The notes below the pieces were generated by a model, which made no database searches, was not told the origin of the DNA, and saw nothing but the letters and a program-made list of their open reading frames with translations. Below, one piece after another: positions 1,991-57,618 of a stretch of DNA of 64,000 nucleotides. The first letter of the stretch is position 1. Every line of letters starts with the position of its first letter. Both the position numbers and the translations under genes were made by a program. This stretch comes from a virus (lineage: Duplodnaviria > Caudoviricetes). The DNA lies in IMG/VR virus record IMGVR_UViG_3300028048_000038, positions 32,001 through 96,000 of that record. The stretch is one strand, 5' to 3'.

Positions 1991-2018
1991 GGGGAAGAAG
2001 CCGAATTGCTTCCTCCCC
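1991..2018 (-). terminator. intrinsic terminator ending the 2.0-2.3 kb non-coding transcript
   Basis: GGGGAGGAAGC/GCTTCTTCCCC stem followed by a U-rich tract on the minus strand. Confidence 0.75.
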
Positions 2019-2064
2019 TTACAACGACAAGAATCAGTAACAATTAAAAAGATTAGATTAATTG

Positions 2065-2177
2065 TTGAAGGAGCTGAATTTGAATCAGCGAAGCTTCCGA
2101 AGAAGCACACTAAGCACGAACTTAGTGCCCATTTGTCCACATCAGTCTTGCGACTGTTCTCCTCTGGTATCCTTCAA
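2065..2177 (-). ncRNA. tRNA-like structured RNA (acceptor-like stem and T-arm, three extra hairpins, no anticodon arm)
   Basis: TTGAAGGA/TCCTTCAA closing stem stacked on GCTGA-TTCAAAT-TCAGC; hairpins CAGTC-GCAA-GACTG, CACTAAG/CTTAGTG, GCTTC-TTCG-GAAGC. Confidence 0.75.
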
Positions 2178-2189
2178 ATATATCTTTGA

Positions 2190-2302
2190 AAAGTAAGGTG
2201 TTCTCCGCTGAGAAACTTTTTTATGGTGTTCTCGTCTTCTTCCTAATGCCCTCACATCTTGAACTATTCAGAGGGATTTGTTCTCCATTTAAACCTTGCT
2301 TT
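2190..2302 (-). ncRNA. structured RNA module with repeated GAGAACA motifs
   Basis: Closing stem AAAGCAAGGT/ACCTTACTTT; internal CCCTC/GAGGG stem; starts just after promoter 2325-2358; no credible ORF. Confidence 0.55.
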
Positions 2303-2384
2303 ATGTCTATCGTCTCATTGACAATGCAAAGATATATCTGATTTTCTTAAATTCCAAATTTTCTCATAACTTTTTAACAGTTTT

Positions 2385-2714
2385 TTACATTTCGATGTTC
2401 TCAATCATATCAAATATGTGTGTGAATACGATTGCTGCAAGTGTTGGAGCATACATCTTTATTGCTTCCCAATCAAAATAGTATTGTTCCTCATTGTTAT
2501 CAATAAACCAAAGTTCAACACCAAATTGGTTGTTAACACGGAGTGATAACAAATCCCCCTTGAACACACACTTTGGAAACTTTATTGTTAAATTCTCGCT
2601 GAATGGTTTCGGCAAATTTGGAAAATATTCAAATTCTTCTCCATTAAACTCACCTTTTGCAATGATGAACATCGCAATCAATTTCTCAATTCCTATTGTA
2701 ATTTCTTTATCCAT
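2385..2714 (-). CDS. hypothetical protein
   Basis: ORF in operon with 2722..2988. Confidence 0.7.
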   Translation of the reverse strand: MDKEITIGIEKLIAMFIIAKGEFNGEEFEYFPNLPKPFSENLTIKFPKCVFKGDLLSLRVNNQFGVELWFIDNNEEQYYFDWEAIKMYAPTLAAIVFTHIFDMIENIEM

Positions 2715-2721
2715 ATTCTTT

Positions 2722-2988
2722 TTAGATTATAGTAATCCCACAATTACCAATAGTGAGATTGATTGCTTTATTATGCTTAAGTGCAACCTTGCTGATGTCA
2801 CGACCCTTAAGGTCAATCTCAAATACAAAACACCCACGAAGCCATTGCAAAGGTGTCTTGCAGTCAATAGACCTCTCAAAATAGTCATAACGAGCAATTT
2901 CCTCGCCATCGTATAGCAACTCTATTCTGTCGCCACGCTTAAGATTCTTGTCAATCTTCTTAACCTCTTGCTCTAATTTTTTCTTCAT
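2722..2988 (-). CDS. hypothetical protein (paralog of 3575..3793)
   Basis: Shared EVKK...I.(L/I)..D/E...YD pattern; promoter at 3012. Confidence 0.7.
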   Translation of the reverse strand: MKKKLEQEVKKIDKNLKRGDRIELLYDGEEIARYDYFERSIDCKTPLQWLRGCFVFEIDLKGRDISKVALKHNKAINLTIGNCGITII

Positions 2989-3056
2989 ATTAACCCTTTT
3001 TGTTTTAACAATGCAAAGATACGAAATATTTTTGAATTAACCAAGAAAAATCTCCA

Positions 3057-3347
3057 TTATTTTACATAGAGATTTTCAAGTTTGCAATTCATAATATCTC
3101 CGTCACGATGATACACACGTTTTAATTCAGACCTTGACGAAACATTATTGAACGTGAAATACACAAGTTTATCAAGCGTATATTGCAATGTCGTGCTGAA
3201 ATAGTCTGTATAAAGCCATACTTGTGGCTTCTTATGTGACTTCGTTGGATTTGTGGCTAATATCTTGCCACTCTTTCTATTGCGTACCCTACCAAGGTTT
3301 GAAACCTCATAACGAGTGTTCCACCATAAAATTTTCCACTCTTCCAT
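3057..3347 (-). CDS. NUMOD4/HNH-type homing-endonuclease-like protein (degenerate HNH)
   Basis: EEWK...YEVSNLGRVRN (NUMOD4) and HRDGDIMNCKLENL (HNH_3-like). Confidence 0.75.
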   Translation of the reverse strand: MEEWKILWWNTRYEVSNLGRVRNRKSGKILATNPTKSHKKPQVWLYTDYFSTTLQYTLDKLVYFTFNNVSSRSELKRVYHRDGDIMNCKLENLYVK

Positions 3348-3348
3348 A

Positions 3349-3573
3349 TTATAATTTATCTTTAAGTTTGATTAAATCTACACCACTAATCTTCTTATAG
3401 GCACGACCATTGCGAGAGATAAAGAGTGGCTTACCGCTATTCTCCTTTAAACTCCACTCATGTACGCATCTTTCCCACGCTGCCATATCACTGATGGTAA
3501 ACCACTTGGTACTTCCATCGAGTATCTTACCGCTTTTACTGCGACCCTCACCGATTCTAACTACTATACTCAT
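3349..3573 (-). CDS. hypothetical protein (start re-assigned to MSIVV)
   Basis: ATG at 3573 abuts the stop of the upstream gene. Confidence 0.65.
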   Translation of the reverse strand: MSIVVRIGEGRSKSGKILDGSTKWFTISDMAAWERCVHEWSLKENSGKPLFISRNGRAYKKISGVDLIKLKDKL

Positions 3574-3574
3574 A

Positions 3575-3793
3575 TTATCCTTTTCTATAAGTGTAATCGT
3601 AAACCTCATTGTTATCGCCATCATAGGCATAAATAGATTCATCTTCAAACATGATGTCAATGTCTGAACGTTCATCAATTGGATTCTTGCGCATCTTCTT
3701 AACCTCTTTATCAAAGGCTTTCTTTGCGCAGTCAAACTTACGATGCTGACTTATGCAATCGCCACCAACATATAAATCTAATAACTTTGCCAT
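3575..3793 (-). CDS. hypothetical protein (start MAKLL)
   Basis: A-rich leader; paralog of 2722..2988. Confidence 0.7.
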   Translation of the reverse strand: MAKLLDLYVGGDCISQHRKFDCAKKAFDKEVKKMRKNPIDERSDIDIMFEDESIYAYDGDNNEVYDYTYRKG

Positions 3794-3797
3794 ATCT

Positions 3798-4037
3798 CTA
3801 ATCTTTTTTAATTTCGTTATAATAAAACTTCTCAATCCTATAATGTTGCTTAATCATTTTACATAGCAACTCACACTGCACAAGAGTTACATCGTAATTG
3901 TCACGAATGTAGTCAGAAAAATACTCATAAGGTGAACTACTATCTCCAATACGACCATTCCATTTCTCACCAAATGTTTTGATAATATCAGCAAATAACT
4001 TGCTTGTATCGTTTGTTTGTTCCTTAACCCATCCCAT
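3798..4037 (-). CDS. hypothetical protein
   Basis: First gene after promoter at 4073. Confidence 0.7.
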   Translation of the reverse strand: MGWVKEQTNDTSKLFADIIKTFGEKWNGRIGDSSSPYEYFSDYIRDNYDVTLVQCELLCKMIKQHYRIEKFYYNEIKKD

Positions 4038-4148
4038 AATCTTTATTTTCTTTTTAATTGTTATTTTATTGATGCAAAGATACGAAAAAAAATTGGATTA
4101 ACCAAACGATTAACCCAATTTCTTCCAGTTATTTACAATGTTTAACAT

Positions 4149-4427
4149 TTACTCCCCTTTTGAGAGGTCATAAGCACGATTGGTTGATTTCAACTCGTGT
4201 TTCAATTCACGCAATCCCTTTTGATAGTCACGTACCTTTGCACGGCCATCAACAAGAGCCTTTGTCAGATTCGTTAAACGTTCTGAACGTTCCTCCTTAT
4301 TGGGTGTCCAAATGGGGGCAATCTCCAAACGAATAGCCTTATTTGCTTCTTCACGATTGCTTAATGAGGTGCGTAACTCAACTTGTGCTATGCGGATTGA
4401 CCGCATCTTTGCTAACTCCTTTGCCAT
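4149..4427 (-). CDS. hypothetical coiled-coil protein
   Basis: ORF with helical, charged composition. Confidence 0.7.
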   Translation of the reverse strand: MAKELAKMRSIRIAQVELRTSLSNREEANKAIRLEIAPIWTPNKEERSERLTNLTKALVDGRAKVRDYQKGLRELKHELKSTNRAYDLSKGE

Positions 4428-4431
4428 AGTT

Positions 4432-4878
4432 TTATTTTAATGCTTTAATTTTATCATAATATAATGTCTTTGCATATTCTGTCAATTCTGATTCTGCCAT
4501 TTTGAGAAATGATTTATAGTCATTTACTTGTGATTCAAGTGGTAAAACCACTTCAAACTTTACTTCAATGGTAGCACTTACAATAGTGTCGTTTTTCCCA
4601 ATCACACCCACTTGCTGCAAGATGTATTCATCAATCTGCTTCTTAAAGCATGGGGAAACGATAGCACTTGCTTCTACATTCTCATATTCATACACATGTG
4701 TATAAGTCACTCGCTTTTCATCTGCATGATACTCAACCTCCAAGTGGAATGTGTCACCATCGGCATCAACCATATCTTGAAAGATAATCACGTAGGTATC
4801 ATCATCAAGCCAATGTTCATCTTGCACCTCATAGAAGATGGTTGGTATTGACTTTGATGTGAAAACTTTTTTTGCCAT
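4432..4878 (-). CDS. hypothetical protein
   Basis: GAGGAG leader; promoter at 4916. Confidence 0.75.
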   Translation of the reverse strand: MAKKVFTSKSIPTIFYEVQDEHWLDDDTYVIIFQDMVDADGDTFHLEVEYHADEKRVTYTHVYEYENVEASAIVSPCFKKQIDEYILQQVGVIGKNDTIVSATIEVKFEVVLPLESQVNDYKSFLKMAESELTEYAKTLYYDKIKALK

Positions 4879-4962
4879 ATCTATTCTCCTCTTTAATTGT
4901 TATTTCTTTTCTTGATGCAAAGATACGAAATTCCCTTGAATTAGCCAAGGGAATTAACAATT

Positions 4963-5223
4963 TTAACACTCAATGAGTGGTATTTCTTCCACACCAAACT
5001 CATAGTCCTTAAAGTTGGCATACCCATGATGGCATACAGCCTTTGAAATCTCATAGGCAAAGCCACTGAACTGAGCGAGTATTCCACTCTCTACGATGGT
5101 AAATCTCACATTTTCAATCACACTTGGGTCACGCATATCCTTATCAGACGGAATAGCGCAAATACACCCCTTTGTATTATCGTCAGTGTCCACATAATAC
5201 ACTACCTTAATATTCTTACTCAT
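4963..5223 (-). CDS. hypothetical protein
   Basis: Overlaps 5220..5408 by 4 bp (translational coupling). Confidence 0.7.
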   Translation of the reverse strand: MSKNIKVVYYVDTDDNTKGCICAIPSDKDMRDPSVIENVRFTIVESGILAQFSGFAYEISKAVCHHGYANFKDYEFGVEEIPLIEC

Positions 5224-5408
5224 ATTTCTTCTTTGACTTCAAGTTTTGTATAACAGAAACTAATACCACCTTTTGCGAATGGCGGTCTTTTCTTGAACTT
5301 CTTCAATGCCTCGTCAGCATTTTCAGCCTCTATTATCTTCCATCCACCTTTTTCACATACTTCTGGTTGAGTGATTTTCACTTCGTATGTGACACGATAT
5401 TTACTCAT
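5220..5408 (-). CDS. hypothetical protein (xEAENADEA small-protein motif)
   Basis: Resembles 18041..18211 (VDAKDEGEALEK). Confidence 0.65.
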   Translation of the reverse strand: MSKYRVTYEVKITQPEVCEKGGWKIIEAENADEALKKFKKRPPFAKGGISFCYTKLEVKEEI

Positions 5409-5796
5409 ACCAATCGTTTGCTACATCATCAGTTTCAAAAATACACTCTGCAATTAACTGATTGCGCTCGGCATCACCAGTTACGCCATCAAGAATACCG
5501 CCATAAGGGGAAAGATACTCGGCAATCTGTTCCGCATCGTAATCGTTCACATCTGTCTCGCTCTGATACCAATCAGCGATTGTGGTGCGGTCATTCAGAA
5601 CTGAAAGCAAATGCTTGTTGCCCAAGTGAAACGTCTTGACAAATGCCTTCAAATCATCATTCTTTAACTGAATGTACTCAAACTCCGTGTCGCTAACCTT
5701 GCGACAGAACTGACATTCATCTGGGTCTGTGCAAATCCACTCTTCCACATCAAAGTGAATCGTGTTGTCCTTGTTGAATTTGTTGTTAAACCACAT
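5401..5796 (-). CDS. hypothetical acidic protein
   Basis: AAAAGGAGATTAGATT leader. Confidence 0.75.
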   Translation of the reverse strand: MWFNNKFNKDNTIHFDVEEWICTDPDECQFCRKVSDTEFEYIQLKNDDLKAFVKTFHLGNKHLLSVLNDRTTIADWYQSETDVNDYDAEQIAEYLSPYGGILDGVTGDAERNQLIAECIFETDDVANDWYE

Positions 5797-6097
5797 AATC
5801 TAATCTCCTTTTATTTAATCATATTAATACTTTAACCACATAATCTAATCTCCTATTCTATTTCAAAATGACAATCTATTTTCCCAAGTGATGAACATAT
5901 ATCACTATCACCACACATAAAATGCAAACTGCATTTGCTACAAGCGTTATACATAATATCATCCTTTACTAATTTATGTCTTACGCCATTGATTTCTACT
6001 ATAATATAGTCCATATCTCCTTTTGTTTTTTATTGTGGTGCAAATATACGAAAAAAATCTGAGATAGCCAAAAAAATCCCAGATTTTTAACTTTTAT

Positions 6098-6328: not shown

Positions 6329-6329
6329 A

Positions 6330-6587
6330 TTAGAAGCCTTTTAAGACGTTTGCCACGAACAACATCAATGTATAGGTCTCGCTCCCATCAAGACATTCCA
6401 AGTCCTCTGGGGTCAAACCCTCCATCAGTTGCTTGCAGCCATTTCTGACTGACATTTTACGATTTTTATTCTCTCTATCACGGAGAACACCATCATCATC
6501 AAGATTAAACCAATTATCCATGTGGGATGCTTTGGCTAACTTCTGCAATACAGAAATCTGATAACTTGTTAATTCTAACTTTGCCAT
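6330..6587 (-). CDS. hypothetical protein
   Basis: Promoter at 6611. Confidence 0.7.
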   Translation of the reverse strand: MAKLELTSYQISVLQKLAKASHMDNWFNLDDDGVLRDRENKNRKMSVRNGCKQLMEGLTPEDLECLDGSETYTLMLFVANVLKGF

Positions 6588-6876
6588 ATTACTTATCTTT
6601 TTAATTGTGGTGCAAAGATACGAAAAAAATCTGAATTAACCAAACAATCCAGATTTTTTTAGCATTTTTTATCATTCCACACCACCTATTGCGAGAGCCT
6701 TGAAATGGTGCATTGCTTCATTCAACGTCATTTTGCGAGGTGCAGTGACTTCTTTGTTCCCATCCCTTGTGAAGATGTTGAACTTGGTGAACTTCGCTAC
6801 CCTTGTTACTTCTTCTTTTAACTTTGCCATAATTTAATCTCCTTTTAATTGTTATGGTGTAAATATACGGAAAAAC

Positions 6877-7098: not shown

Positions 7099-7243
7099 AT
7101 TACTTATCTTTTTAATTGTGATGCAAAGATACGAAATTATTTTGAACTGGCCAAGAAAAAAGTGTTAATAAACTTAAATTGGGTGATATTTCTTTCAATA
7201 CCACCCAATCAAACAAACATTCACATACTTAACTTCGTTATGG

Positions 7244-7921
7244 CTACCATTCTTCACAGAATCTTACCACCACAGATGTATCTTTAATTCCTTGACTTGC
7301 AAGGTAATCATTAATCACCTTATTTAAGCCATCTTCAAGACTCTTTGGGTCTTTGATACGCTTTTTAAGTGTCTTGGTATAAACCTCGAACTTCTCCTTA
7401 AAAGGATTTGTTTTAGTTACATATTCCTCGAACTTGGCATAGTTACAAGTGGAAAGAATATCACCCTCAGTATGGAAATTAGCGTCATGCAATCTTTCTT
7501 CGAGAAACCATTTCATACGCTTATCAGCCTTTTGGTGCTCTCGCATCAACTTCATCAAACTATCGTAGCCATAGGAATAATCACACTTATTATTAGGTGA
7601 TTTAACATACTTCTGAAATTCCGCATGGGTATAGTAGATGTCGCCATTACCCTTGTTATCACCACTAAGGAACTTATCTATTGCCTCTTTGCAATCTGTA
7701 ATAGTTTTTGCATTAACACAATAGTCTTGTGATGGCAATTTCTCGTCACCCTCTTTGCAGAAATCGAAATGCACCTCTTTGCTATCAATCCAATCTTTAT
7801 CGAATCGGTTATTATCCCAAAGGGAACGATGATATTTGATTTTCGTCACCTTGATAACACGATACCCCTTATAAAGTTCCATTGGGGTACGATTTGTTTC
7901 TTTTCCACTCCTTACACTCAT
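7244..7921 (-). CDS. hypothetical protein
   Basis: 225-aa ORF coupled to 7918..8157; followed by a terminator. Confidence 0.8.
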   Translation of the reverse strand: MSVRSGKETNRTPMELYKGYRVIKVTKIKYHRSLWDNNRFDKDWIDSKEVHFDFCKEGDEKLPSQDYCVNAKTITDCKEAIDKFLSGDNKGNGDIYYTHAEFQKYVKSPNNKCDYSYGYDSLMKLMREHQKADKRMKWFLEERLHDANFHTEGDILSTCNYAKFEEYVTKTNPFKEKFEVYTKTLKKRIKDPKSLEDGLNKVINDYLASQGIKDTSVVVRFCEEW

Positions 7922-8157
7922 TTTGCACTCTCCTTTTTAAGTTCTTCTAAATGGTTATTAATATACTCCTTAACGGCATCGAGAGAACGGCAAACACTAT
8001 CCTTAACTTTCATGTTCCGCTTCGTTGCTCCCCTCGGAATGGTAACGTAGAAATCACCATACCAATTATTTCCTATCATGCTACCATACTGCCATACATC
8101 AATACCCTTGTATCTTCCGCAGTAGTGCTTTTTGTCATTGTTGAAAAATATTCCCAT
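7918..8157 (-). CDS. hypothetical protein
   Basis: Promoter at 8183. Confidence 0.7.
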   Translation of the reverse strand: MGIFFNNDKKHYCGRYKGIDVWQYGSMIGNNWYGDFYVTIPRGATKRNMKVKDSVCRSLDAVKEYINNHLEELKKESAK

Positions 8158-8235
8158 AATCTCTAATCTTTTTTATTTCTGATGCAAAGATACGAAAAAA
8201 AATCGAATCTACCAAATTTTTTAAAAAGAAAATAA

Positions 8236-8655
8236 CTCCAGATGTTTCGAATTAACCTTCGTTAACATCTGGAGCCGAAAAGGAGATTTGATTGATGAAA
8301 ATTGAAGGGTGAAACTACTCTAGTTTTACACCATTGTTTGCCTTATCTATCACCTCTGACGAGGGAATCACCCTATAACAAAGCAAGACATGGGAGGTTT
8401 GATTTCTCTTACGAAGGCAATCCTTATTCCCTCTTTGCTATGGATGCCAATCCCCATATTTCAACACATTCTTGCCTTATATCTTAAAATGTGGGAAAGA
8501 TGATGCAATTTGAAAACTATCGTACAGGACGTATTATCGTCAAATTTTCTTTGCTTAGTGCAGCCGCAGGGACTATTAGCCATCTTCTTGTTGCACCACC
8601 ATCACTGACCTGCGCAGTAATATCAGTGACTTTTTGACCCACGTTTATTATTCTC
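8236..8655 (-). ncRNA. ORF-free structured transcript (two modules, anti-leader tail, terminator)
   Basis: Promoter 8664-8697; terminator 8236-8274; stems GTCACTGA/TCAGTGAT, GGTGCA/TGCACT, GAGGGAAT/ATTCCCTC, AGGGTGA/TCACCCT. Confidence 0.65.
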
Positions 8656-8688
8656 TTAAACGATGCAAAGATACGAAATCTTTTTCAT

Positions 8689-8865
8689 TCAACCAAACTT
8701 TTTAACGTTTTTAACACTTGCTTTATTTTCTTCCCTAACCGCTTCTCTCGCCAATGCGGTGAGTTCTTTCATGGCACACTCAATGAACCAATCCATATCG
8801 TCAATAGGCTCATTCTGTGCCCTCTCGATGCGGTATCTTAATTGTTCCTCAAATTTTTCCCACAT
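8689..8865 (-). CDS. hypothetical protein (start MWEKF)
   Basis: Follows 8870..9259; 3' end overlaps the next promoter. Confidence 0.6.
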   Translation of the reverse strand: MWEKFEEQLRYRIERAQNEPIDDMDWFIECAMKELTALAREAVREENKASVKNVKKFG

Positions 8866-10141: not shown

Positions 10142-10280
10142 AAATCTTTTTGTTTTCTTGATGCAAAGATACGAAATTTATTTGAACTGGCAAAGACATT
10201 TAACACTTTTAACATAAAAAAAGTGGTGGCTAGGCTTTGATTGATTACCTAGTCACCACGTCAAAACAAAAAGATTACGA

Positions 10281-10676
10281 CTATGAATATTTTTCTACCA
10301 AATCGACAAATGCAAGTGGGTACAATCCCCTTGTAGATGTTTCTCGTGCCATCTTGTCCAAGTGCTTCTCTACGAACTCGGAAAGAATGTCATGCACTTT
10401 CTTCTCATACTTAAATTGAGGAATGGAAATGGTTGCGTTTGTCTTGCCCCTTGCTTCATTTAAAGCCCTACGAATGAGTTTCTCTTGCCAAGGTAGGTTA
10501 TACTTCACCTTGAGGATTTTCTCAACGATGGCGAGGATAGAAAGGGCACTATCCTTATAATATGCTTTGCACATCTGATAGTTGAGGATGAGGTCAGCCT
10601 TTTTCTTGTAGGCTTCCAACAATTTCTCATTCTTACTCTGTGCTTCTAACTGCTTTCTTACTTTTGAATTACTCAT
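10281..10676 (-). CDS. hypothetical basic protein
   Basis: ORF followed by anti-leader tail and terminator 10223-10259. Confidence 0.75.
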   Translation of the reverse strand: MSNSKVRKQLEAQSKNEKLLEAYKKKADLILNYQMCKAYYKDSALSILAIVEKILKVKYNLPWQEKLIRRALNEARGKTNATISIPQFKYEKKVHDILSEFVEKHLDKMARETSTRGLYPLAFVDLVEKYS

Positions 10677-10964: not shown

Positions 10965-11154
10965 ATCTTTTCTGTTTTGATGGTGCAAAGATACGAAATT
11001 ATTTTGAATTGACCAAATATAAAATGTTAAAAAATGAAAATTGGCTTGATTTCCCCTAATCAAGCCAATCAATTTAAAAAGGTTATTTTCCTTAAAAATC
11101 CAAGGGAATCCCTCATAATTCCCTTGGAATATACTATAAATATAATGAATCTAT

Positions 11155-12195: not shown

Positions 12196-12333
12196 AATCT
12201 AATCTCCTATCCTTTTATTATTTTGATGCAAAGATACGAAAAATAAATGAATCTACCAAAAAAATTAGTGAGAAATGTCTGGATTCTAACAATCTTTAAC
12301 ATTTCCCACCTTAAAAGGAGATTAAAAAGCGTG

Positions 12334-12427
12334 TAGGCGAGGGGGGACTCGAACCCTCCATAGGACTTACTTTTATGCCCATTGGTTTTTAAGACCAACT
12401 TGTCTAACCTAGTTGCAACACTCGCCC
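12334..12427 (-). tRNA. tRNA-Leu(TAA), class II, CCA not encoded
   Basis: GGGCGAG/CTCGCCT acceptor stem, A73, TTGGT-CTTAAAA-ACCAA anticodon arm, long variable arm, GGTTCGAGTCC T-loop. Confidence 0.92.
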
Positions 12428-12511
12428 ATATAAAAAAAAAAATCCCTTCCGAAATCTCACGACTTGAGAAGGGAGGAATATATTATAAATAATAATTAAC
12501 AAAAATCTCTA

Positions 12512-14277: not shown

Positions 14278-14455
14278 TTATCTTTTTTGTTTTGACAATG
14301 CAAAGATACGAAAAAATAACGAATCTACCAAATTTTTTATGTTAAAAAACACAAATGGGGCAATGTCTCACGACATCACCCCATCAAAACTAAAAACCTA
14401 ACAATTCAAATTATGGAAAACAAAGAGCGTTACCACAACGCAAAACGAGCATAAG

Positions 14456-14542
14456 TGCAACCCAGTAGGACTCGAACCTACGGCATACGAGCACACAAGA
14501 TGTAAACATCGGCACGATTTCTACCAACTGAATTATGGGCGC
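14456..14542 (-). ncRNA. pseudo-tRNA / tRNA mimic with remodelled anticodon region
   Basis: Canonical D-loop AGTTGGTAGA and T-arm GTAGG-TTCGAGT-CCTAC; bulged acceptor GCGCCCA/TGGGTTGC; no 7-nt anticodon loop. Confidence 0.7.
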
Positions 14543-14785: not shown

Positions 14786-15585
14786 TTGTTTCCCACACCT
14801 TTAGTAGCAAATCCACTCAGCATATAATCTCACTCGGTCGTTGGGTGGTCGCTGTGGGTAGGGTTGATACACAACTTATTTTTTGAGTGTAGGGGAGTTC
14901 TATAGACGAAATCGGCATAACTCCCTCGCTGACACTCGCAGCAGTGTTGAGGGCGGTGGTGGTGCGAACTCTGTTGGTCGCATCCCTAATGCCCCATGAA
15001 AAAGAACGACTTATAACCAAAGAACACAGCATTTGCATACCGCAGTCTTTATACCCCCTCAGAAATGTGCGCACGTTGAGGGGTGCTGGCTGAACTTCCA
15101 TCGTTCTAATATGTTACCCACGCTTCTAACGGACAGCCGTGAACGCAGCCTATTGGCAGTTTGGCAGCGTAAGAATCGAATTTCGGCAGATAACTCGCCC
15201 AAGGAAAATCGACACTCTATTATTGGTGCAGATGTGGGCGAAACATAAGCGTTTAAGGGCTTAAAGTTTTCGTATTTCTATTATTATTTTTAGTCGAATG
15301 ACCTTGCCAAGCCATGCACATTGACATGGGTAGAGGCGGTAATAAATTCTTACTTAGGGTCGGTCTCTAATCATTACTTGTCTCTTTTCTTATATAATAT
15401 ATTCTAATAATCCAGTGCTAAAAATTTAATAAATCCCTTACATGGGCGGAGGTCGTTCCATTATTTCTTTCTTTTTAGGTGAGGGTATCGCAACCCTCGT
15501 TACTAATTCTGATGCAAAGGTACGAAATTTTTTTGAACTGACCAAACTTTTTCGGTGTTTTAACTTCGTTTAACCTTTGAGAAAA

Positions 15586-17683: not shown

Positions 17684-18040
17684 GTTAGTTTGTTGTTAAT
17701 CTAACTCCAAGAATATTAACCCTATCATCATTAAGAGTAACATCTGCTGTCGCAAAGTAGTCAATCAAATCCGTTGCTTCAACCGCATCAATTTGAGTAT
17801 CATCAAACTCATAGTCGATGTCAATCGTCATTGTGTAAGTTCCTTTTATCATACTTTCAATCTCCTTTTAATTTATTTGTGGTGCAAAGATACGAAAACT
17901 TTTTGAATTGACAAAGGAAAAATGGATTTTTTTTTGTAATTGGCTGGTTTTTTAACCCTTATTAACAAAAAATGGGATTGATGAATACTCATCAACCCCA
18001 CGTAAACATGGAAATCAATACCAACTAAAACATTATGTCC

Positions 18041-20825: not shown

Positions 20826-21923
20826 TTAGGCTGCTGCGAGACAAAGGTCAAATGTTTTCTGCACCTTTTTGTAGATGTTGCCATCTAAGATGCTATCGAA
20901 CTTGATTTCCTCGCTACGTTCTGTGGCTTCATTCTGATAGTAAGAGGTCAAACCATTCATCAGCCATAACGCTGTTCCACGCTCTTGACCCTCTTGACCT
21001 ACACCACTCTCCAAGCACTCCTTAACACCTAAGAAGATGTTACGTCCACGAGTCTTGATTGCATCGCTATAAATGTTGTGATTCTCCAAGAAATCCTTTG
21101 CAGCCTCTGGTGCCAACACAACCTCTGCAATGATGTTATCAAGGTCTCTCTCAGCCAACTTGATGTTGCGTAAGTGTTCAAAACTCTCTTTCAACCCATT
21201 TGCATATACATTGGCTACATTAAGAGCCTTATAAGCAAACTCAGCGTTTTCCTTATTCAAGAGGTCAAGACGTGACATCACCTTTGATGAATGACGGAAA
21301 GCAATACGACCAATGTTGTTCTTCATTGCCCAATTCAGCGTATTGTTACATACCACACGAACTGGTGTAACCATGCAGCGAACTGAACCAGTACCATCAT
21401 GTGAGGTGGTGAACACCACATACATATCTACGAGGTCATCACGCTTTGCATCCAAGACAATGCTCTGTGGGAACTTTGCGGTAACAAACACACGCTCACC
21501 ATTACCAAGCACACCACAAGTCTCAATCACTGGGGTATTGTCTCTATCAGCAAACTTACCGCTACAGAACATATCCACGAACTTGAAAGCGTCCTCGTTC
21601 TGTACGATACCATACTTATCAGATACGATGCCAAGGCTCTTGTTGCTATCGAGACGCATTGTAGCCATAGTGTTGTCCACAAGCAGACTCTTTAACATTG
21701 CAGCGTTGATAAACTCGCCATTGTCCATAGCATTACGTAACTCGTCAGAGAGGGCTATCACTGGCTGCAAACCTACGTTGTAATCAGCGTGACAAAGTTT
21801 CAACGCATCCTTCACGAACATTGGTTCATCTACCACTTGTCCAAGTCCATGCCAAGCACGCTCTCTACGTCCGTTCTCTGCAAAACTTGCACCTCTCTCT
21901 GTAATCTCAATCATTGCGCTCAT
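20826..21923 (-). CDS. DUF932 / TIGR03299-like phage-plasmid protein
   Basis: AWHGLG, YGIVQN..AF, SHDGTGS, TPVRVVCNNTL, GTALWLMNGLT motifs. Confidence 0.85.
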   Translation of the reverse strand: MSAMIEITERGASFAENGRRERAWHGLGQVVDEPMFVKDALKLCHADYNVGLQPVIALSDELRNAMDNGEFINAAMLKSLLVDNTMATMRLDSNKSLGIVSDKYGIVQNEDAFKFVDMFCSGKFADRDNTPVIETCGVLGNGERVFVTAKFPQSIVLDAKRDDLVDMYVVFTTSHDGTGSVRCMVTPVRVVCNNTLNWAMKNNIGRIAFRHSSKVMSRLDLLNKENAEFAYKALNVANVYANGLKESFEHLRNIKLAERDLDNIIAEVVLAPEAAKDFLENHNIYSDAIKTRGRNIFLGVKECLESGVGQEGQERGTALWLMNGLTSYYQNEATERSEEIKFDSILDGNIYKKVQKTFDLCLAAA

Positions 21924-36576: not shown

Positions 36577-37544
36577 ATTTTCAATCTCCTTTCTATTTAT
36601 TTTTGGTGCAAATATACGAAAAAAACTTGAGATAACAAAATATTACCTCAAGTTTTAACATTAATTATAAGTGATTAGCCACCTTGAATATACATTAACC
36701 CTTCTCTGTTGAACATATCGACTGCATTGTTGGCATAGTTATTTAAATTTTGAATTCAATCCTTTTTCATAGAAATACTTATATGCACATTTGTCTGGTA
36801 AATACATACCATCACTAGATATAAATTCATTGAATAGTTTGTTAAATTCAATCTCTTGTTCTTTTGTCATAGTCACTGTTTTTTAATTCTGTTGGTATGA
36901 ATGGTTTTCCTTCTTCTCTACGTAAAGTGATTCCTAAAATATCATAGTCATCTACTAAGTTAAGTGGGTCAAACCTTTTATGAAATTTATATTTAAAATT
37001 ATCTGCCAACTTAATATATTCCAACCAATTTTCTTTAGTTGAATTATTGAAATAATTTAAATATGCTTCATATACTTTAGCACGTTCTTGTAAACAATAT
37101 TTTGTCATATTTTTTGTAATCCATATCTTAATTGCCTTTATATGGTTTGAAATATTCTCTAGCATCATGGAAGAATGTCATTTCATTTCCATTGTCGTTT
37201 CTGAGATATCCGTCTTTATGACAGTAGTATTTCTTGCCAACGGTAAACTGAACGATGTGCATAACATTGTCCATGCCATCAACTTTAAAGATGGTGTTAT
37301 AACAAACGTAGTGTTTGCCCTTTTTAAGATTAAGTTTCTTATCCATAGTATTTTATTGGTCTTTCATTTCCTCATATGTTTCCTCATCATAGCCAAAGAA
37401 TCCAAGTGGGTCTTCCATTGGCTTTCCAGCTATATGTTCATAAGCTTCTTTAGCTGCGTTTATGCAATCTTCTATTGTTGCTCCCATATCGAAGAACTTA
37501 TGATATTCATAGTCTGCTGCTTTTTCTGCTGCAATTAAAGTTGA

Positions 37545-39241: not shown

Positions 39242-39770
39242 AATTTTTATTTTTTAGTGATAGTCATTACAAGTTTATCTCCTATTTCTAGCTCATTGGT
39301 GAGTGTTTGCCCAAATTTATTTAAATCAGAATCGCAGATGGCAATTGTTCTGGCTCCCATTTTGCTAACCACTTCTGCATCAAATGTGTAAACTTTATTT
39401 TTATCCATATTATCTATTTTTGCTGCAAAGATACGAAAAAAAATTGAGTTGACCAAATGTCAACCCAACTTTTTAACAGAGTTTAACCTAAACAATTTAA
39501 GTTCTTCAAGCCATCTAGCCAATTGAAGATGGTCTTCAGCGCATCCTTTAATTGAACAAGTAATAGCTTTTTCCTTGCAATGAGCTATTGCTTCATCCAA
39601 TGTCATTTTCATCAATATTTTGATTGGTCTGTCAACGCTCCACGTTTACATCTTCTTTCAGGTGTTAAATGTGAATAACCAAAATAATGACGATACCACT
39701 CTTCATGCCTTCTAATTTCTTCTTTTGTCATGATAGTTAAAAATTTTAAAATTAAACAATAAAAAAAAAT

Positions 39771-39862
39771 AGGCACACCCCTCACATTTTCATGTGAAGA
39801 GTATGCCTTACTGTTACAGTGACCTTAAATATTAATATATAGGTATGTTGGCTTTCAATAAA
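39771..39862 (-). ncRNA. stand-alone small RNA (anti-start-codon seed and terminator)
   Basis: Own promoter 39868-39901; no ORF; hairpin 39771-39808 plus U-tract. Confidence 0.6.
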
Positions 39863-39924
39863 TTCAATGCAAAGATATGGAAAATAATTGATATAACCAA
39901 ATATTTATAGTTAAAAAATGTTAA

Positions 39925-41119: not shown

Positions 41120-41197
41120 TAATATCGAATTTCTTTAGATATTTTGTAATCATTCTATAAATGAGCAATCACTCAACTGTGGTTGCTCATTTTTTAT
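41120..41197 (+). ncRNA. putative antisense RNA / leader complementary to the start of the DGR target gene
   Basis: 41125-41153 pairs with 41269-41291; hairpin 41159-41192 plus U-tract. Confidence 0.55.
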
Positions 41198-49138: not shown

Positions 49139-49139
49139 T

Positions 49140-51626: not shown

Positions 51627-51631
51627 ATTAT

Positions 51632-53432: not shown

Positions 53433-54137
53433 TCATTCTCCATCTTCTATTTCAATATATAACGGTTTATAAACCATTTCATAATTCTCATTCAACAAAG
53501 ACACACAATAAACAGCAGTATCATTATGCATTGTCTTTTCATGGTTGCAAGAATGTAAATGCCCGAATAGGTGGAGAGTTGGATTGGCTGCATCCAATAG
53601 TTTTCTCAATGATTCATTCCCTATATGACTACCATCAGCCCACCAACAGTCCTTTTGCAATAATACGTCACTCACACCGTATGGTGCATCATGAGACATC
53701 AATATATCAACATTACCTATTATATCAAGGTATCTTGCATATCTTTTGTCTTGTTCTTCGTATGACTCCATGAATGCCCATCTTCCGAATGGTTTGCACC
53801 AAGGAGTGCCGAATATGGTTTTACCCTTATATTCAAAAGTTTCACAGTCTAAGTAAGTAATTTTGTCTTGACCTTTCAACATTAAGCGTATTCTGTCTGG
53901 GTGACGCATCATTAGCCAGTCATGATTTCCTGCAATAAATAATACCTTTTCACAAGGTAGATTAGTACACCAAGGTATGAACACGTCTTTCAACCAATCC
54001 TCACTTGGGTCTGTGAAGTTCTGTATCTTAAGTGGTAGTATGTCACCACATATTAACACAATGTCGCATGGCTCAACCTTGAAATCTAGTTGCCCATGCA
54101 TATCTGAAAATGCGCATATTCTCATTTCAATCTCCAA
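53433..54137 (-). CDS. calcineurin-like metallophosphoesterase
   Basis: SDMHG, CGD, GNHD, SHDAP, FGHLH motifs. Confidence 0.9.
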   Translation of the reverse strand: MEIEMRICAFSDMHGQLDFKVEPCDIVLICGDILPLKIQNFTDPSEDWLKDVFIPWCTNLPCEKVLFIAGNHDWLMMRHPDRIRLMLKGQDKITYLDCETFEYKGKTIFGTPWCKPFGRWAFMESYEEQDKRYARYLDIIGNVDILMSHDAPYGVSDVLLQKDCWWADGSHIGNESLRKLLDAANPTLHLFGHLHSCNHEKTMHNDTAVYCVSLLNENYEMVYKPLYIEIEDGE

Positions 54138-54183
54138 TTATTTCATCTTCAAGAACTTATATAATAATCTATATGCCTCTTTT

Positions 54184-54540
54184 TTACTTATCATTCTTCA
54201 AAAAAGTTCGTATATATGGATAACCTATCGCCTTCCACCACCCATCTCTAAGCTTGCCCCAATATCCATCTCTATTGGCTACATGATATATCCTAGCATT
54301 TTCCCAACTAAATATTCTATCAGCATAGAACAGACAATCATCTAGGTAGCAAGTATCCACCATATTATTTAAAACTTCCTCTACAGTATTAAAATGATGG
54401 GATAACATGCATTCACTCACCATTTCCTTGAAACAACCTTCTCGTTTCAAGAACTTAACAATAAATGCTTTTGCCTCTTTCCTTGTTATCGTCCCATTAT
54501 CCTTTAATCTTTCAAACGGATACCTTATATTTTTATTCAT
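54184..54540 (-). CDS. KFL...F.W paralog family member
   Basis: VKFLKREG...IFSWENA...GYWGKL..GW. Confidence 0.75.
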   Translation of the reverse strand: MNKNIRYPFERLKDNGTITRKEAKAFIVKFLKREGCFKEMVSECMLSHHFNTVEEVLNNMVDTCYLDDCLFYADRIFSWENARIYHVANRDGYWGKLRDGWWKAIGYPYIRTFLKNDK

Positions 54541-54932
54541 AGTTTAAAACCTTTGTTGGTATTAATAATGCGATACCAAATTATATCTATGTCTGTCCAT
54601 AATCTAGTATTCTTTGTAACATATAAGTAAAAAGAAATACGGATATCATAGAAGAAATCCCTAAATAGCATTTTTTCACTTTCGTCTAATATATCATCAA
54701 CCCTTTCGTCTAATATACCATCAACCCTATACTCGATGCATTTCTTAACTGACATCCTATCTCTTTTAATTATAACATGTGGATGTATTTTCATAAATGT
54801 TTCCATATATTCACTAAGTATATTATTCTTTTTCAGAAAATCATATACTATGGAAATCATTATCTTTTTCTTCTTCGGCTTTCTCATGCCCTTCAAACAA
54901 GGGTATGAATAGTTTTCAAAATCAGCTAGCAT
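54537..54932 (-). CDS. KFL paralog family member
   Basis: VYDFLKKNN...T.NTRLW.DI..IW. Confidence 0.7.
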   Translation of the reverse strand: MLADFENYSYPCLKGMRKPKKKKIMISIVYDFLKKNNILSEYMETFMKIHPHVIIKRDRMSVKKCIEYRVDGILDERVDDILDESEKMLFRDFFYDIRISFYLYVTKNTRLWTDIDIIWYRIINTNKGFKL

Positions 54933-54981
54933 ACATATGCAAATATATTAAAAATAATTTTAAAAAACAAATTTTTCCAAA

Positions 54982-55356
54982 CTAAATCCTATTGTGGATG
55001 ACTTTAGTGCGTGCTAACTGTAAGCTAGTAAAGTCACACCATTTTTTAAATATGCCATGCCAAAAAGTGATTTTTCTTTCCCTATCTCCGCTTGGATATG
55101 ATGCACTAGTCCAATCAAACGTGCAATCAACTCTCAATAGAACATCCATGCATGTTTGAGCATTTGAACCCATGCGAGTTAGTATCTCTTTAGGCATATC
55201 TATATCCGTAGTGCGTTTGACCTCATCAACAACTGTAGTCCAAAGACCAATCTCGCATAGAAACTTATAGACAAGTTTTTCTACAGCCTCTTGAGGTATC
55301 GCTATATCTCTTGCATATCTCTTTAGCAATAAATCTCTGTAATCTTTTGCTTTCAT
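54982..55356 (-). CDS. KFL...F.W paralog family member
   Basis: VYKFLCEIG...TFDWTSA...FWHGIFKKW. Confidence 0.75.
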   Translation of the reverse strand: MKAKDYRDLLLKRYARDIAIPQEAVEKLVYKFLCEIGLWTTVVDEVKRTTDIDMPKEILTRMGSNAQTCMDVLLRVDCTFDWTSASYPSGDRERKITFWHGIFKKWCDFTSLQLARTKVIHNRI

Positions 55357-55727
55357 GGCGTTTTTCTCACATATATATCATGGTCTATTATTATATTCCA
55401 TTCCAAATGGATTAGATACCAATTAATGTTGGATTTTGGAATCCACCAGTTTATAGACACATAATCATAGTTGAAAAAATGATGTAGTGGTAACTTGTTA
55501 TTTATCAAATTTATTAGACATTTGTATAATATCTCATTGGTACTCAACTTATCTACCACTGTGTGGTCAAATCCATTGCATTGTGTATAATACTTGTAGC
55601 ACCGTATAAACTCATTTAAAGCTTTTTTTTCCAACAAAAACCTACCTAGCAAGTATTTTGCCTTTTTAATGGATATTATATTAGGCTCATTCCATGTTGT
55701 ATCAATATAACGCTCTATTCGTATCAT
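55353..55727 (-). CDS. KFL paralog family member
   Basis: LGRFLLEKKA...INW...NW.LI..EW. Confidence 0.7.
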   Translation of the reverse strand: MIRIERYIDTTWNEPNIISIKKAKYLLGRFLLEKKALNEFIRCYKYYTQCNGFDHTVVDKLSTNEILYKCLINLINNKLPLHHFFNYDYVSINWWIPKSNINWYLIHLEWNIIIDHDIYVRKTP

Positions 55728-56013
55728 AATGCAAAGATATATAAAAAAAATGGAATTAACAACTATGCCAATTCCATTCTAACATTTTTTAACTCAAAAA
55801 TCCAAGTCAACATCAATCGTCTCATTCTCCAACCTTGTATCTTCCATTAGCTGATTATACAGCAACATGAGGTTTTCTTCAAGATGTTCATCATCTGATA
55901 CCGAAAGTGTCATTGAAAGTTCTTTCAAAACATCTTTTGCACCTTGAATATAAGCATTGCGTTTAATGTAATTGCTGCCAACTAGTGTAGATTTGCAGTA
56001 GTCTTCAGCTCTC

Positions 56014-56370
56014 TCAGTTATATTTTTCATTTAAACGAACTCTTCTATATTTTACTAATTTATCACGCCATTTCATACATAACTCCCTCCAAAACTGTTC
56101 TCCTCTCTCTGTATAACGCCAGTCGAATGCAGAATGATATGCTATTATAATATCATAAATTGGTAAATGATATTCCTTTAAATTCATAATTGAGGAAGTG
56201 AATATGCGCCTAGTATCCAAGAAAGGTGTCTTGTGATACTTTTTAAACTCATCAACAAAGTCCTTGTATGCCCCATTCTCTAGAAGGAATTTCCTAAAGA
56301 TGTATTCAAACTTGGGAATGGTTAAGTAACCATCCACTTCTTTTGATAATATATCTTCAATGTTAATCAT
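56014..56370 (-). CDS. KFL...F.W..T..G..FW paralog family member
   Basis: FRKFLLENGA...SAFDWRYTERGEQFW; close to 56738..57109. Confidence 0.8.
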   Translation of the reverse strand: MINIEDILSKEVDGYLTIPKFEYIFRKFLLENGAYKDFVDEFKKYHKTPFLDTRRIFTSSIMNLKEYHLPIYDIIIAYHSAFDWRYTERGEQFWRELCMKWRDKLVKYRRVRLNEKYN

Positions 56371-56378
56371 GCTTCAAA

Positions 56379-56741
56379 CTATATGTAAAATGTTTCATAA
56401 TACTTGCTCTCCCATTTATCGGATATAATCCCCCATTTGGTTATATTACCTAAATAATCACGATAATTATATGGGAAAGAAGATGGAATCCACCTGAAAA
56501 ACCCACGAATGGTATATCCATACATACCACTAGAATCGTAAGCATCGATGCTCTTCATCAAATGAGTTTTGAAGTCATCGTATTCGTCAAAGTTGATATA
56601 CCTAGTATCGTGGTCATCTTTCTTAAACTTCTTAAACTTCTTAGATGCTTCAAACCAATCCTTTTGTATTCTATTCTCAAGCATGAATTGATACAGCAAG
56701 AAAAAGAACTGTTTCTTATTAACTACTCTCGGTGCTTTCAT
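56379..56741 (-). CDS. KFL paralog family member
   Basis: LYQFMLEN...SSF...KW..IS.KW. Confidence 0.7.
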   Translation of the reverse strand: MKAPRVVNKKQFFFLLYQFMLENRIQKDWFEASKKFKKFKKDDHDTRYINFDEYDDFKTHLMKSIDAYDSSGMYGYTIRGFFRWIPSSFPYNYRDYLGNITKWGIISDKWESKYYETFYI

Positions 56742-57109
56742 TTTAGATAAAAATCCCCTAAAAAACGACTTTTAGTTACATCATACCACTTATCACTCAG
56801 CCTTGCCCAATACCCACGTCCTCTTCTAGTTCTCGACCAGTTGAATGCAGAACAATATGCTGTAATCATTTCATCAATGCTTCTTCCGCTTGATTTCAGA
56901 TTATCTATTGAAGAAAAGATAATATCCTTTGGATTTTCATTAACTAGGTTTTCTGAGCATATTACTTTGTGATAGCTAATAAATTCTTCAACAAACTCCA
57001 TATAAGCTCTATTTGCCAAAAGGAATTTGGTGAAAAGATATGCTAACTCTTCTTTAGAAATCATATAGTTATCAACCTCATGAGATAATATTCCTTCAAT
57101 GTCAATCAT
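56738..57109 (-). CDS. KFL...F.W..T..G..W paralog family member
   Basis: FTKFLLANRA...SAFNWSRTRRGRGYW. Confidence 0.8.
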   Translation of the reverse strand: MIDIEGILSHEVDNYMISKEELAYLFTKFLLANRAYMEFVEEFISYHKVICSENLVNENPKDIIFSSIDNLKSSGRSIDEMITAYCSAFNWSRTRRGRGYWARLSDKWYDVTKSRFLGDFYLK

Positions 57110-57420
57110 AAACCAACTTTAAAACGTATACCCTTTGTATACTCTTTCCATTCATTTGATAATTTATACCAAAAGCAATAACCTCTTCTTGTCTCTCTCC
57201 AAGTAAAGGAAGAATCAATACTCTCAAAGAAATCGCCTATTGACCAACAATCTCTAACAGCTTTTCTGATAGTAGATTTTAAATCACGCTTATAACGTTT
57301 ATGGTAGTCGCTATATTCTTCGCAAAATTCCTCAAGTAAGCATTTCTTCCTCAAGAACTTTATAACAAGATATACAACCTCTTTTCTTGTCAATTCGTTT
57401 TTGTCTAATATATCAAACAT
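57106..57420 (-). CDS. KFL...F.W..T..G..FW paralog family member (start MFDIL)
   Basis: IKFLRKK...SSFTWRETRRGYCFW; the longer ORF call runs into the tRNA. Confidence 0.75.
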   Translation of the reverse strand: MFDILDKNELTRKEVVYLVIKFLRKKCLLEEFCEEYSDYHKRYKRDLKSTIRKAVRDCWSIGDFFESIDSSFTWRETRRGYCFWYKLSNEWKEYTKGIRFKVGL

Positions 57421-57444
57421 TTTGCCTACATTAAAAAACCATAG

Positions 57445-57528
57445 AGACTGGGGTGGGATTCGAACCCACGTACCTTTACGGCCAAAGCTTTTGCAGAGCC
57501 AGGCGTTTGACCACTCCGCCACCCAGTC
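57445..57528 (-). tRNA. tRNA-Cys(GCA) with atypical long variable arm
   Basis: GACTGGG/CCCAGTC acceptor, U73, loop CTGCAAA, 15-nt variable region, GTGGG-TTCGAAT-CCCAC. Confidence 0.85.
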
Positions 57529-57618
57529 ATATATAAAATAAGCCCACCACTATTTTCACAAACGGCAGTAGGCAATGTTTACCAATCAATATGAACAAAA
57601 ATCATTAACAACGATTTC

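Follow-up and report, generated by a model that had tools for sequence, protein, structure and literature searches.

Why does a jumbo phage of the cattle rumen carry a battery of about 10 short U-rich segments that are antisense to translation starts and lie immediately 5' of terminators? The phage genome (G000) is linear, 409.5 kb long, with inverted ends of 127 bp. It carries Bacteroidota-type promoters, and the window, i.e. the whole stretch of 64,000 nucleotides analysed here, is its promoter-dense part. We presume that the window is the early region of the phage, and both the label "early" and the host are used in this presumptive sense. Promoter-leader cassettes are repeated and abundant in this region, and capable of recombining. 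The segments, hereafter seeds, are neighboured by small genes without recognised function. They had been preselected by a sequence-only reading that proposed about 11 loci; scoring and gene calls were done with our own scripts, accessibility terms being left out. The quoted segments were all found in place, each abutting on its 3' side a hairpin and U-tract of the minus strand, and the features located below lie on the minus strand except where indicated. Most of the loci are conserved. Two of them fell away: the AT-rich 3' UTR at 12475-12510 (proposed as 12477-12510) and the AT-rich spacer at 41125-41162 (plus strand, before hairpin 41163-41188; proposed as 41125-41153) are not conserved in sequence, have no target above null and are unsupported as seeds in this genome.

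The layout is enriched in the early region. Seven of its 10 terminators are preceded by a U-rich 35-nt segment, vs. 5 out of 46 elsewhere (Fisher p=3e-4). This enrichment was found again in the relative G003 (6/11 early vs. 1/27 elsewhere, p=0.001), and the relatives G001 and G002 show the same direction (p=0.08 and 0.11). Moreover, two tags of early leaders occur 12 and 12 times in sense in the early region and only 1 and 2 times in antisense, and all three antisense copies adjoin a terminator (~7e-5 under random placement). The seeds lie outside called genes, apart from overlaps with stop codons. They are kept far beyond synonymous sites and their flanking stems covary, while the plus-strand ORFs differ in frame and length (12 to 60+ aa in differing frames for S14385), have no promoter and are not kept. 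As in trans-acting small RNAs generally, a conserved single-stranded seed is joined to an intrinsic terminator, and neither strand keeps a coding frame over the seed. The view that these behave as conserved small RNA seeds and not as micro-genes was supported, and the battery was found again, with changed seeds, in relatives at ~50% protein identity. Shedding from mRNA 3' ends would apply to some loci; several others follow a tRNA or a tRNA mimic in units that start from a promoter and contain no gene. Three seeds (S2040, S12311 and S14385) trail a tRNA or a tRNA mimic, which is likely their release signal.

The two tags distinguish early leaders from other translation starts. AGGAG is present in 12/55 early leaders, 12/474 other phage leaders and 4/317 host-family leaders, and AACAATTAAA in 9/55, 2/474 and 1/317, respectively. 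The leader of gene 6672-6830 (6831-6850), an example of a predicted target, carries both tags. Shine-Dalgarno (SD) sequences are not read by Bacteroidetes ribosomes; some Bacteroidia ribosomal genes do carry SDs, and an anti-SD pocket exists on the ribosome (PMC7797042). Because these ribosomes ignore SD sequences, AGGAG in early leaders needs another reason.

Four seeds, which we call class A (S2040, S8280, S10260 and S12311), may provide it. Their predicted pairing favours early leaders in every close genome tested and is better with phage early leaders than with host leaders (p 1e-5 to 2e-10). Seeds that match the tag only form modest predicted duplexes (-17 to -20 kcal/mol). The proposed silencing of a shared early leader is accordingly predicted for these four, with a pairing preference in up to four related genomes, but not for most other seeds, which have no early preference (7210, 11130, 18001, 39823, 57575, 41125). 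Several seeds are anti-AUG as described, whereas those at 2038, 8278 and 12311 have no anti-AUG and mirror the leader tag only.

S2040 (2038-2059) is antisense to the AACAATTAAA tag and the next bases. It ends a gene-free unit (~2320 to 1985, kept in G001-G003) with a Bacteroidota-type -7 promoter box at 2327-2334 and a terminator at 1991-2018 in which stem changes keep pairing. Its 22 nt are invariant in G000-G002 and also found in L250, with an early-leader preference of p 6e-7 to 1.5e-9; its 14-nt match with the genes starting at 6587 and 7098 is correct, and it shares 15 nt with 4037. Directly 5' of it folds a tRNA-like module (2062-2180) that is likely a processing signal, with paralogs at G000:141366-141605, homologs in G001-G005 and no match in Rfam. 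S8280 (8276-8300), antisense to the AGGAG tag, also ends a gene-free unit (~8660 to 8225, parts kept in G001-G003), with a promoter box at 8666-8673 and a terminator fold at 8236-8274. Its layout is related to that of S12311, the other window seeds being non-paralogous. S12311 (12311-12326; terminator fold 12267-12310) is the 3' trailer of a tRNA-Leu(TAA) gene (12333-12427) and is likewise antisense to AGGAG; its core was found in 5 sequences, with the tRNA present or absent, its early-leader preference is p 1e-4 to 4e-9, and its 16/16 match with the leader of gene 6672-6830 was confirmed. S10260 (10260-10289) overlaps the stop of gene 10281-10676 and precedes a terminator (10223-10259). It is antisense to promoter-proximal early leaders (preference p 1e-8), and the 14/14 match already seen with the leader of 10141 is correct. 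Its best partner is the leader and start of gene 7918-8157 (8152-8185), the same orthologue being ranked 1 in G000, G001 and G003.

Among the other seeds, S57575 (57574-57600) lies in the 3' UTR of gene 57619-58275, followed by a terminator (57542-57573) and then a tRNA-Cys (57444-57528). Its 16-nt core is invariant in 6 genomes. Its best phage target, rank 1 in G000-G002, is the start of a sigma-70 gene identified by Pfam (G000:260674-261399, outside the window), and complementarity suggests that it most likely holds this factor back. S14385 (14390-14426), both anti-leader and anti-AUG, is set between a 5' hairpin (14427-14441) and a terminator (14357-14382) at the end of a long gene-poor unit (~15510 to 14350; promoter box 15515-15522). 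It is identical in 9 out of 10 aligned sequences, the remaining one having two changes, and G000 and G003, which agree at fourfold-degenerate sites with an identity of 0.45, have the same S14385 sequence. RNAalifold gave 11 stem pairs with double changes in its terminator, in an alignment partly out of register. Upstream is a degenerate tRNA (14456-14542; Rfam tRNA 21.6 bits, below threshold), and most relatives have a tRNA or tRNA-like fold there. Its candidate target is G000:234209-234982. S7210 (7208-7232; terminator 7181-7206) lies in the 3' UTR of gene 7244-7921; of the longer segment first proposed (7208-7245), this part is conserved and the ATG is not. S11130 (11129-11155), an anti-AUG seed conserved in G001-G002, has no phage target above null. 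A second tandem seed, S11070 (11068-11083), lies between terminators 11100-11127 and 11043-11066; absent from the earlier list of loci, it is conserved in G001-G003 and has no target above null. S18001 (18001-18040; terminator 17974-17999) keeps its U-rich anti-AUG character at the same position in 5 relatives, the sequence itself being replaced. Finally, S39823 is a stand-alone promoter-to-terminator unit (39765-39865; promoter box 39870-39877, terminator 39772-39807), a putative small RNA or attenuator found at 97% in G002 and 80% in the distant G702 and not found in G001. For six of the seeds, no phage target rose above the null. Under a strict null, in which real leaders serve as pseudo-seeds, the single best targets were borderline (p=0.04 for S57575, 0.09 for S14385, 0.14 for S10260 and 0.32 for S12311).

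Seeds and tags appear to change together between clades. In the distant relative G701, only 2/23 promoter-led early leaders contain AGGAG, vs. 8-10 of 23-29 in the close clade; its early region has no antisense AGGAG copy, and its RNA homologous to that of S8280 lacks the 24-nt seed. The positional orthologue of S14385 in G701 has a predicted 33-nt pairing with G701 early leaders, their own tag variant included, and scores z 2.4 on these leaders vs. 0.8 on those of G000. Furthermore, 6 close sigma homologs retain the sigma-start complement of S57575 (-23 to -27 kcal/mol), 5 distant homologs lack it (-9 to -15 kcal/mol), and the seed itself is absent from G701 and G702. This clade-level co-change represents one or two events, not many, and self-vs-cross pairing among G000-G002 gave no clean compensatory pattern.

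In large phages, the switch from early to late genes is attributed to proteins (sigma factors, RegB, RegA). We consider it probable, judging from the sequence, that in this phage a battery of trans-acting antisense small RNAs times translation, and that a set of RNAs, rather than a protein, switches early genes off. Each RNA would consist of an unstructured U-rich seed of 15-40 nt whose 3' end is protected by the terminator hairpin. Transcribed from strong host-type promoters of the early region, the RNAs would arise in one of three ways: from a promoter of their own (39823), through cleavage by the tRNA-processing nucleases of the host downstream of a tRNA or its mimic (2040, 12311, 14385), or out of the 3' end of an mRNA (7210, 10260, 11130, 18001, 57575). 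As discrete, stable RNAs accumulate, their seeds would pair in the cell with the regions where translation starts and keep ribosomes from loading. Class A would read the two address tags and damp early translation as a group, a negative feedback acting as a timer. Class B, to which S57575 belongs, would read start-codon contexts, possibly including those of host mRNAs. Neither an RRM chaperone nor RNase III was detected in the phage; host factors would therefore be needed, and we know of no Hfq-type chaperone in Bacteroidota.

Silencing of host mRNAs is compatible with this timer and likely for some class B seeds. That it is the main job, in the manner of the Bacteroides small RNA FopS, with seeds complementing generic Bacteroidota starts or SD-bearing ribosomal-protein mRNAs and phage-leader matches as a by-product, seems rather unlikely to us. 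Conservation is higher in S14385 than in its candidate phage target, and of the 29 host matches inspected for it, about two thirds span start codons. From clade to clade, seeds in fixed positions are replaced, as a host arms race would lead one to expect; the seeds of two relatives have 11 nt, at a 3' position, in common with the R1 start of FopS/GibS; and the SDs of some Bacteroidia ribosomal genes (PMC7797042) would offer targets. However, class A fits phage early leaders better than those of the host, and the suggestion that host mRNAs are silenced too brought up no convergent orthologous target for 14385, 57575, 39823 or 7210 in 301-401 sampled genomes, a weak test since the host is presumptive and BLAST ignores G-U pairs.

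It is improbable that the battery serves immunity or superinfection exclusion, blocking early translation of incoming related phages as P1 c4 and P4 CI do. The early tag is common to the clade, the G701 seed at the S14385 position also fits G002 leaders well (z 2.1), the tRNA-like carriers resemble the tRNA-like processing of c4 and CI, and the linear genome with its inverted ends would agree with such a role. But the RNAs and their targets use the same promoter type, which fits feedback, and the target indicated for S57575 is a sigma factor rather than an early gene. Still less credible are protein-binding sites or decoys, whether the seeds are U-rich ligands of host RRM proteins or bS1 or whether S8280 and S12311 mimic the 16S anti-SD tail, fill the ribosomal pocket and free SD-led early initiation. 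Single-stranded, U-rich, conserved seeds would suit such roles, as would the binding of FopS/GibS by RbpB, the existence of the pocket (PMC7797042) and the lack of a phage-own copy of bS21; complementarity spanning tag and AUG and the joint gain or loss of seeds and tags would be left unexplained, and the seeds differ from one another in sequence. A cis fold-back like hok fbi, the 3' end pairing with the leader of its own transcript to limit translation or control termination, is very doubtful: of 529 leaders, those of the same unit take ranks 6 and 9 for 10260, 5 for 11130 and 16 for 18001 and 2040, but 253-394 for 7210, 371 for 57575 and 116-312 for 8280, four seeds lie in gene-free units, and tRNA processing would sever 12311 from any mRNA. 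The absence of any RNA function (inverted leftovers of recombining promoter-leader cassettes, captured intergenic DNA or plus-strand micro-gene starts) fits sites 12477 and 41125 and is otherwise hardly tenable, being contradicted for the conserved seeds by their conservation, covarying stems, fixed place before terminators, layout retained in distant relatives and lack of a plus-strand promoter or conserved ORF.

If the timer is real, it would add an RNA layer to the phage programme in a phylum without Hfq and ordinary SD reading. It would also explain why a phage of Bacteroidota has SD-like tags, and some phage tRNAs and tRNA mimics would gain a function in carrying RNAs. The seed-terminator design, being compact, might become a silencing tool for Bacteroidota. 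More tentatively, developmental timing in this rumen jumbo phage clade could possibly be run largely by RNA: tags ignored by the host ribosome, carriers releasing exchangeable seeds, one set closing the early programme, another delaying the sigma factor, and fast-changing seeds in fixed slots silencing host mRNAs.

Among known systems, E. coli 3'ETS-leuZ is a functional small RNA released behind tRNA-Leu; it sponges small RNAs, whereas the tRNA trailers of the window are antisense to mRNA leaders. T4 RegB reads GGAG in leaders and shuts off early phage mRNAs as a class (PMC1702504, PMC3014915). RegB is itself a protein, a nuclease whose host uses SD sequences, while the reader proposed here is RNA, and the RegB profile PF10715 had no match in the phage or in any control genome. 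PreS (lambda) and VpdS (VP882) are phage trans-acting small RNAs that act post-transcriptionally in lytic growth (PMC12197685), but they are single Hfq-dependent RNAs addressing mainly host functions, with no battery or early-gene class control described. The C4 antisense RNA of phages P1/P7 (immI; Citron and Schuster 1990, as cited in PMC8198154) and P4 CI likewise represent a phage small RNA pairing in trans with its own leader to repress, and pairing with the phage's own mRNA leaders is predicted here too. Theirs is a single RNA family of temperate enterobacterial phages that lies inside the cloverleaf and acts on one operon, whereas about 10 unrelated seeds here would address a gene class by common tags and trail tRNAs; the Rfam C4 model had no match in the window (E<=1) or in focused scans (E<=10). 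Lastly, FopS/GibS of Bacteroides thetaiotaomicron block initiation through U-rich anti-AUG seeds, in agreement with the premise that Bacteroides small RNAs pair with A-rich initiation regions; one member is derived from a 3' UTR and one copy is reported in a phage (PMC11697453). The short U-rich seed against an A-rich start, the terminator hairpin, the sigma-ABfr promoters and the many targets are alike. FopS comprises 14 paralogs that share a single seed, at the 5' end, against SusC genes of the host (PMC11697453), whereas the seeds of the window match phage leaders, adjoin the terminator on its 5' side and, except for 8280/12311, are not paralogs; none contains the R1 seed in a by-eye comparison with R1 oligos. 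The battery would thus work like P1 c4 and Bacteroides FopS/GibS while belonging to neither.

The phage record (G000, a rumen jumbo phage) has 409,537 bp, 127-bp inverted ends and 46 tRNA calls; the window corresponds to its positions 32001-96000. The phage seems to use code 11, over which the alternative genetic codes tried gave no clear advantage; a CTA-anticodon tRNA was called at G000:136577-136653 and is also listed for two distant relatives, G701 (401 kb) and G702 (317 kb), about 50% identical to G000 on the sigma gene. A tmRNA is present in both of these relatives and none was called in G000. Among the closer relatives, G001 and G002 are complete, with a median of 81% and 76% identity at the protein level, and G003, G004 and G005 are partial (58%, 52% and 49%). 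A search of the annotated phage collection gave no DNA match, and the sequencing runs containing this region come mainly from ruminant gut (bovine, sheep and goat). The stretch at 1-23 kb of the window is densely set with Bacteroidota-type promoters, upstream of many small minus-strand genes, and from promoter type and density we infer that this is the early region. Its biggest gene encodes a DUF932 protein (20826-21923, minus strand), a marker for locating relatives. The promoters are similar to those of Prevotellaceae genomes. When 301 Prevotellaceae-genus genomes were searched at the DNA level for a host (two candidates scored per genome), promoter look-alikes came up and no spacer. Early promoters often lie inside terminator-like hairpins, with the -33 box in the loop and the U-tract entering the -7 box (1144-1167, 1477-1500, 4083-4128, 6621-6662, 36626-36652 and 39446-39466, minus strand), so that a single element may close one unit and open the next.

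The sequence-only reading had described U-rich segments (seeds), antisense to translation-start regions, just 5' of intrinsic terminators. All quoted segments are present, each immediately upstream of a hairpin and U-tract, and the quoted leader matches are exact. At most sites, however, the longest perfect complement is no better than that of shuffled AT-rich seeds, and only the class as a whole is non-random. As matches of 14-16 nt are weak when taken singly, the argument rests on class-level tests. In G000, a U-rich segment precedes 7 out of 10 early terminators vs. 5 out of 46 others (p=3e-4); this enrichment is also found in G003 (p=0.001) and is not significant in G001 and G002. Antisense copies of two early tags occur three times in the early region, each time adjoining a terminator. 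Rfam scans of the window (E<=1) and of two sub-regions (E<=10) returned tRNAs only.

We then considered conservation. The seed at 14390-14426 is identical in 9 of the 10 aligned sequences, and identity at fourfold-degenerate sites is 0.45 for the pair G000 and G003; at this locus the upstream tRNA is swapped among relatives and the terminator stem varies with its pairing retained. The 57575 core shows no change across six genomes. Conservation extends to G003 for seeds 12311, 8280, 11070 and 7210 and to G002 for seeds 2040, 10260 and 11130. G003 probably has counterparts of 2040 and 10260 as well, and seed 39823 was found in G002 and in the distant G702. Two further proposed sites, 12477-12510 and 41125-41153, showed no conservation. 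In G701 and G702, six or seven U-rich segments precede early terminators, often anti-AUG and several of them behind tRNAs. Behind tRNA-Leu(TAA), the trailer is antisense to AGGAG in G000-G002 and to AUG in G701/G702: the slot is kept and the seed replaced. Outside the window, other U-rich segments precede terminators at G000:27969-28008 (plus strand; seeds differ among G000-G002), 124474-124495 (minus strand) and 242162-242187 (minus strand; including an R1-like core). The conserved seeds are very probably real RNA elements under selection.

Four seeds (2040, 8280, 10260 and 12311) mirror tags of early leaders. AGGAG occurs in 12 out of 55 early leaders, vs. 12 of 474 for other phage genes and 4 of 317 in a host-family sample; the corresponding counts for AACAATTAAA are 9, 2 and 1. 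The former is mirrored by seeds 8280 and 12311 and the latter by seed 2040, while seed 10260 mirrors the promoter-proximal leader plus AUG. For each of these four seeds, early starts outscore the other starts in all close genomes that were tested (p 9e-4 to 2e-9), and early phage starts outscore host starts. Seed 10260 has one and the same orthologue as best partner in all three of G000, G001 and G003, despite changes of seed and leader in G003. In G701, AGGAG is rare (2 of 23 promoter-led early leaders), no antisense copy of it was found, and the 8280 homologue is devoid of the 24-nt seed. The positional orthologue of 14385 in G701 has the same order as in G000 (long micro-ORF-led RNA, tRNA-like element, seed, terminator), with a predicted 33-nt pairing with its own early leaders (-28 to -31 kcal/mol). 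Since ribosomes of Bacteroidetes dispense with SD pairing (PMC7797042), AGGAG may be an address tag, comparable to GGAG for T4 RegB (PMC1702504).

The remaining seeds would be directed at start-codon contexts. For 57575, the top rank among about 530 starts in G000, G001 and G002 goes to that of a sigma-70 gene (G000:260674-261399; Pfam r2 and r4). Six close sigma homologs have the seed's complement at this start and five distant ones do not, and the seed was not found in G701 and G702. The 28-nt core scores 44-45 on the phage site, vs. 43 on the top-scoring host site retrieved from 301 genomes. Viral contigs outside the clade also match this core, with no terminator behind the match; these appear to be normal gene starts or coincidences. 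The clade has three sigma-70-like genes (paralogs in G001-G003), one of them adjoining the early region. The predicted partner of seed 14385, over 30 nt and mostly with G-U changes, is the start region of a conserved gene for a 257-aa protein without Pfam or Atlas match; in G003 the predicted partner is a different gene, and in G701/G702 a search for a terminator-linked segment complementary to the start of their own 257-aa gene gave nothing. With real leaders as the null, the best targets of 57575 (p=0.04) and 14385 (p=0.09) are borderline, and base-level compensation between seed and target among G000-G002 is not clean. For seeds 7210, 11130, 11070 and 18001, no phage target exceeded the null, and 39823 has one phage match, not retained in G002. 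Pairing with translation starts is the probable mode of action of the conserved seeds. A search of 185,579 genomes with the 14385 pattern gave a sole match, 34 nt and exact (window 14392-14425 vs. G006:C1:18055-18088; L039 ~2056-2089), in frame within an ORF of 2310 aa with leucine-rich repeats in a Prevotellaceae MAG. Its chance expectation is 1e-6 or less; the match may be captured phage DNA, a seed donor, an internal target or an assembly artefact.

The DNA shows three ways in which an RNA could be set free. Seed 39823 would be released as a stand-alone unit (promoter, about 60 nt, terminator). Seed 12311 lies behind tRNA-Leu, 14385 behind a degenerate tRNA and 2040 behind a tRNA-like module. 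tRNA maturation proceeds by processing nucleases, which would release these trailers. Seeds 7210, 10260, 11130/11070, 18001 and 57575 begin at or near a stop codon, as 3' UTRs, and 8280 ends a gene-free unit. Two tandem paralogs of the tRNA-like module (2062-2180) lie within the tRNA cluster (G000:141366-141605), homologs occur in G001-G005, and a second such element is inserted ahead of seed 2040 in G001 and G002. The gene-free unit (8660-8225) has conserved blocks at 8365-8490 and 8598-8658 (minus strand), with 61 nt identical in G002, and carries in G001-G003 a third anti-AGGAG segment lost in G000. The 39823 element (39765-39865, minus strand) lies between a promoter and the downstream operon, with a similar context in G702, and could therefore be an attenuator or riboswitch instead of an sRNA. 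At the head of a long gene-poor RNA, micro-ORFs MERPPPM (15438-15461) and MIRDRP (15354-15374, both minus strand) are candidate ribosome-stalling peptides; MERPPP is retained with synonymous changes in G001-G004 and the distant G701. Contigs from four bovine or other metatranscriptome runs (three studies) span parts of the early region, gene-free units included (X3: 8287-8705; X2: from 14379; X21: 14794-15238 and 8469-8636). These contigs do not reveal strand, transcript ends or expression level and may derive from DNA, and were not counted as support for discrete RNAs. Searches of the phage for bS21, an RRM protein and RNase III found none of them.

As for the main role, we lean towards a timing of the phage's own genes. 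Immunity to superinfection would involve the same pairing, and sequence alone does not separate it from a timer. Host mRNAs are possible targets; searches with 14385, 57575, 39823 and 7210 gave scattered genes and no convergent one in the genomes sampled, which may not include the true host and make this a weak test. A fold-back in cis onto the leader of the same transcript fits 10260 and 11130 at most. Decoy models leave the joint gain and loss of seeds and tags unexplained. Plus-strand micro-genes are excluded, since the ORFs from mirrored ATGs keep neither frame nor length and no promoter was found within 250 nt.

Finally, we compared these putative RNAs with known systems. In a literature search of incomplete coverage, neither a battery of phage sRNAs nor a shut-off of early genes by sRNAs was found described. 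The window RNAs would work like c4 of P1/P7, a phage RNA directed at the phage's own leader (PMC8198154), and like FopS/GibS of Bacteroides, which share the U-rich anti-start seed (PMC11697453); RegB is a protein doing what the window RNAs are proposed to do. They belong to neither of these RNA families, and a search for RegB gave no match in the phage, nor in any control genome. What sets this phage apart is the number of seeds without relation to one another, the tRNAs as putative carriers, the replacement of seeds slot by slot and a candidate target in a sigma factor.
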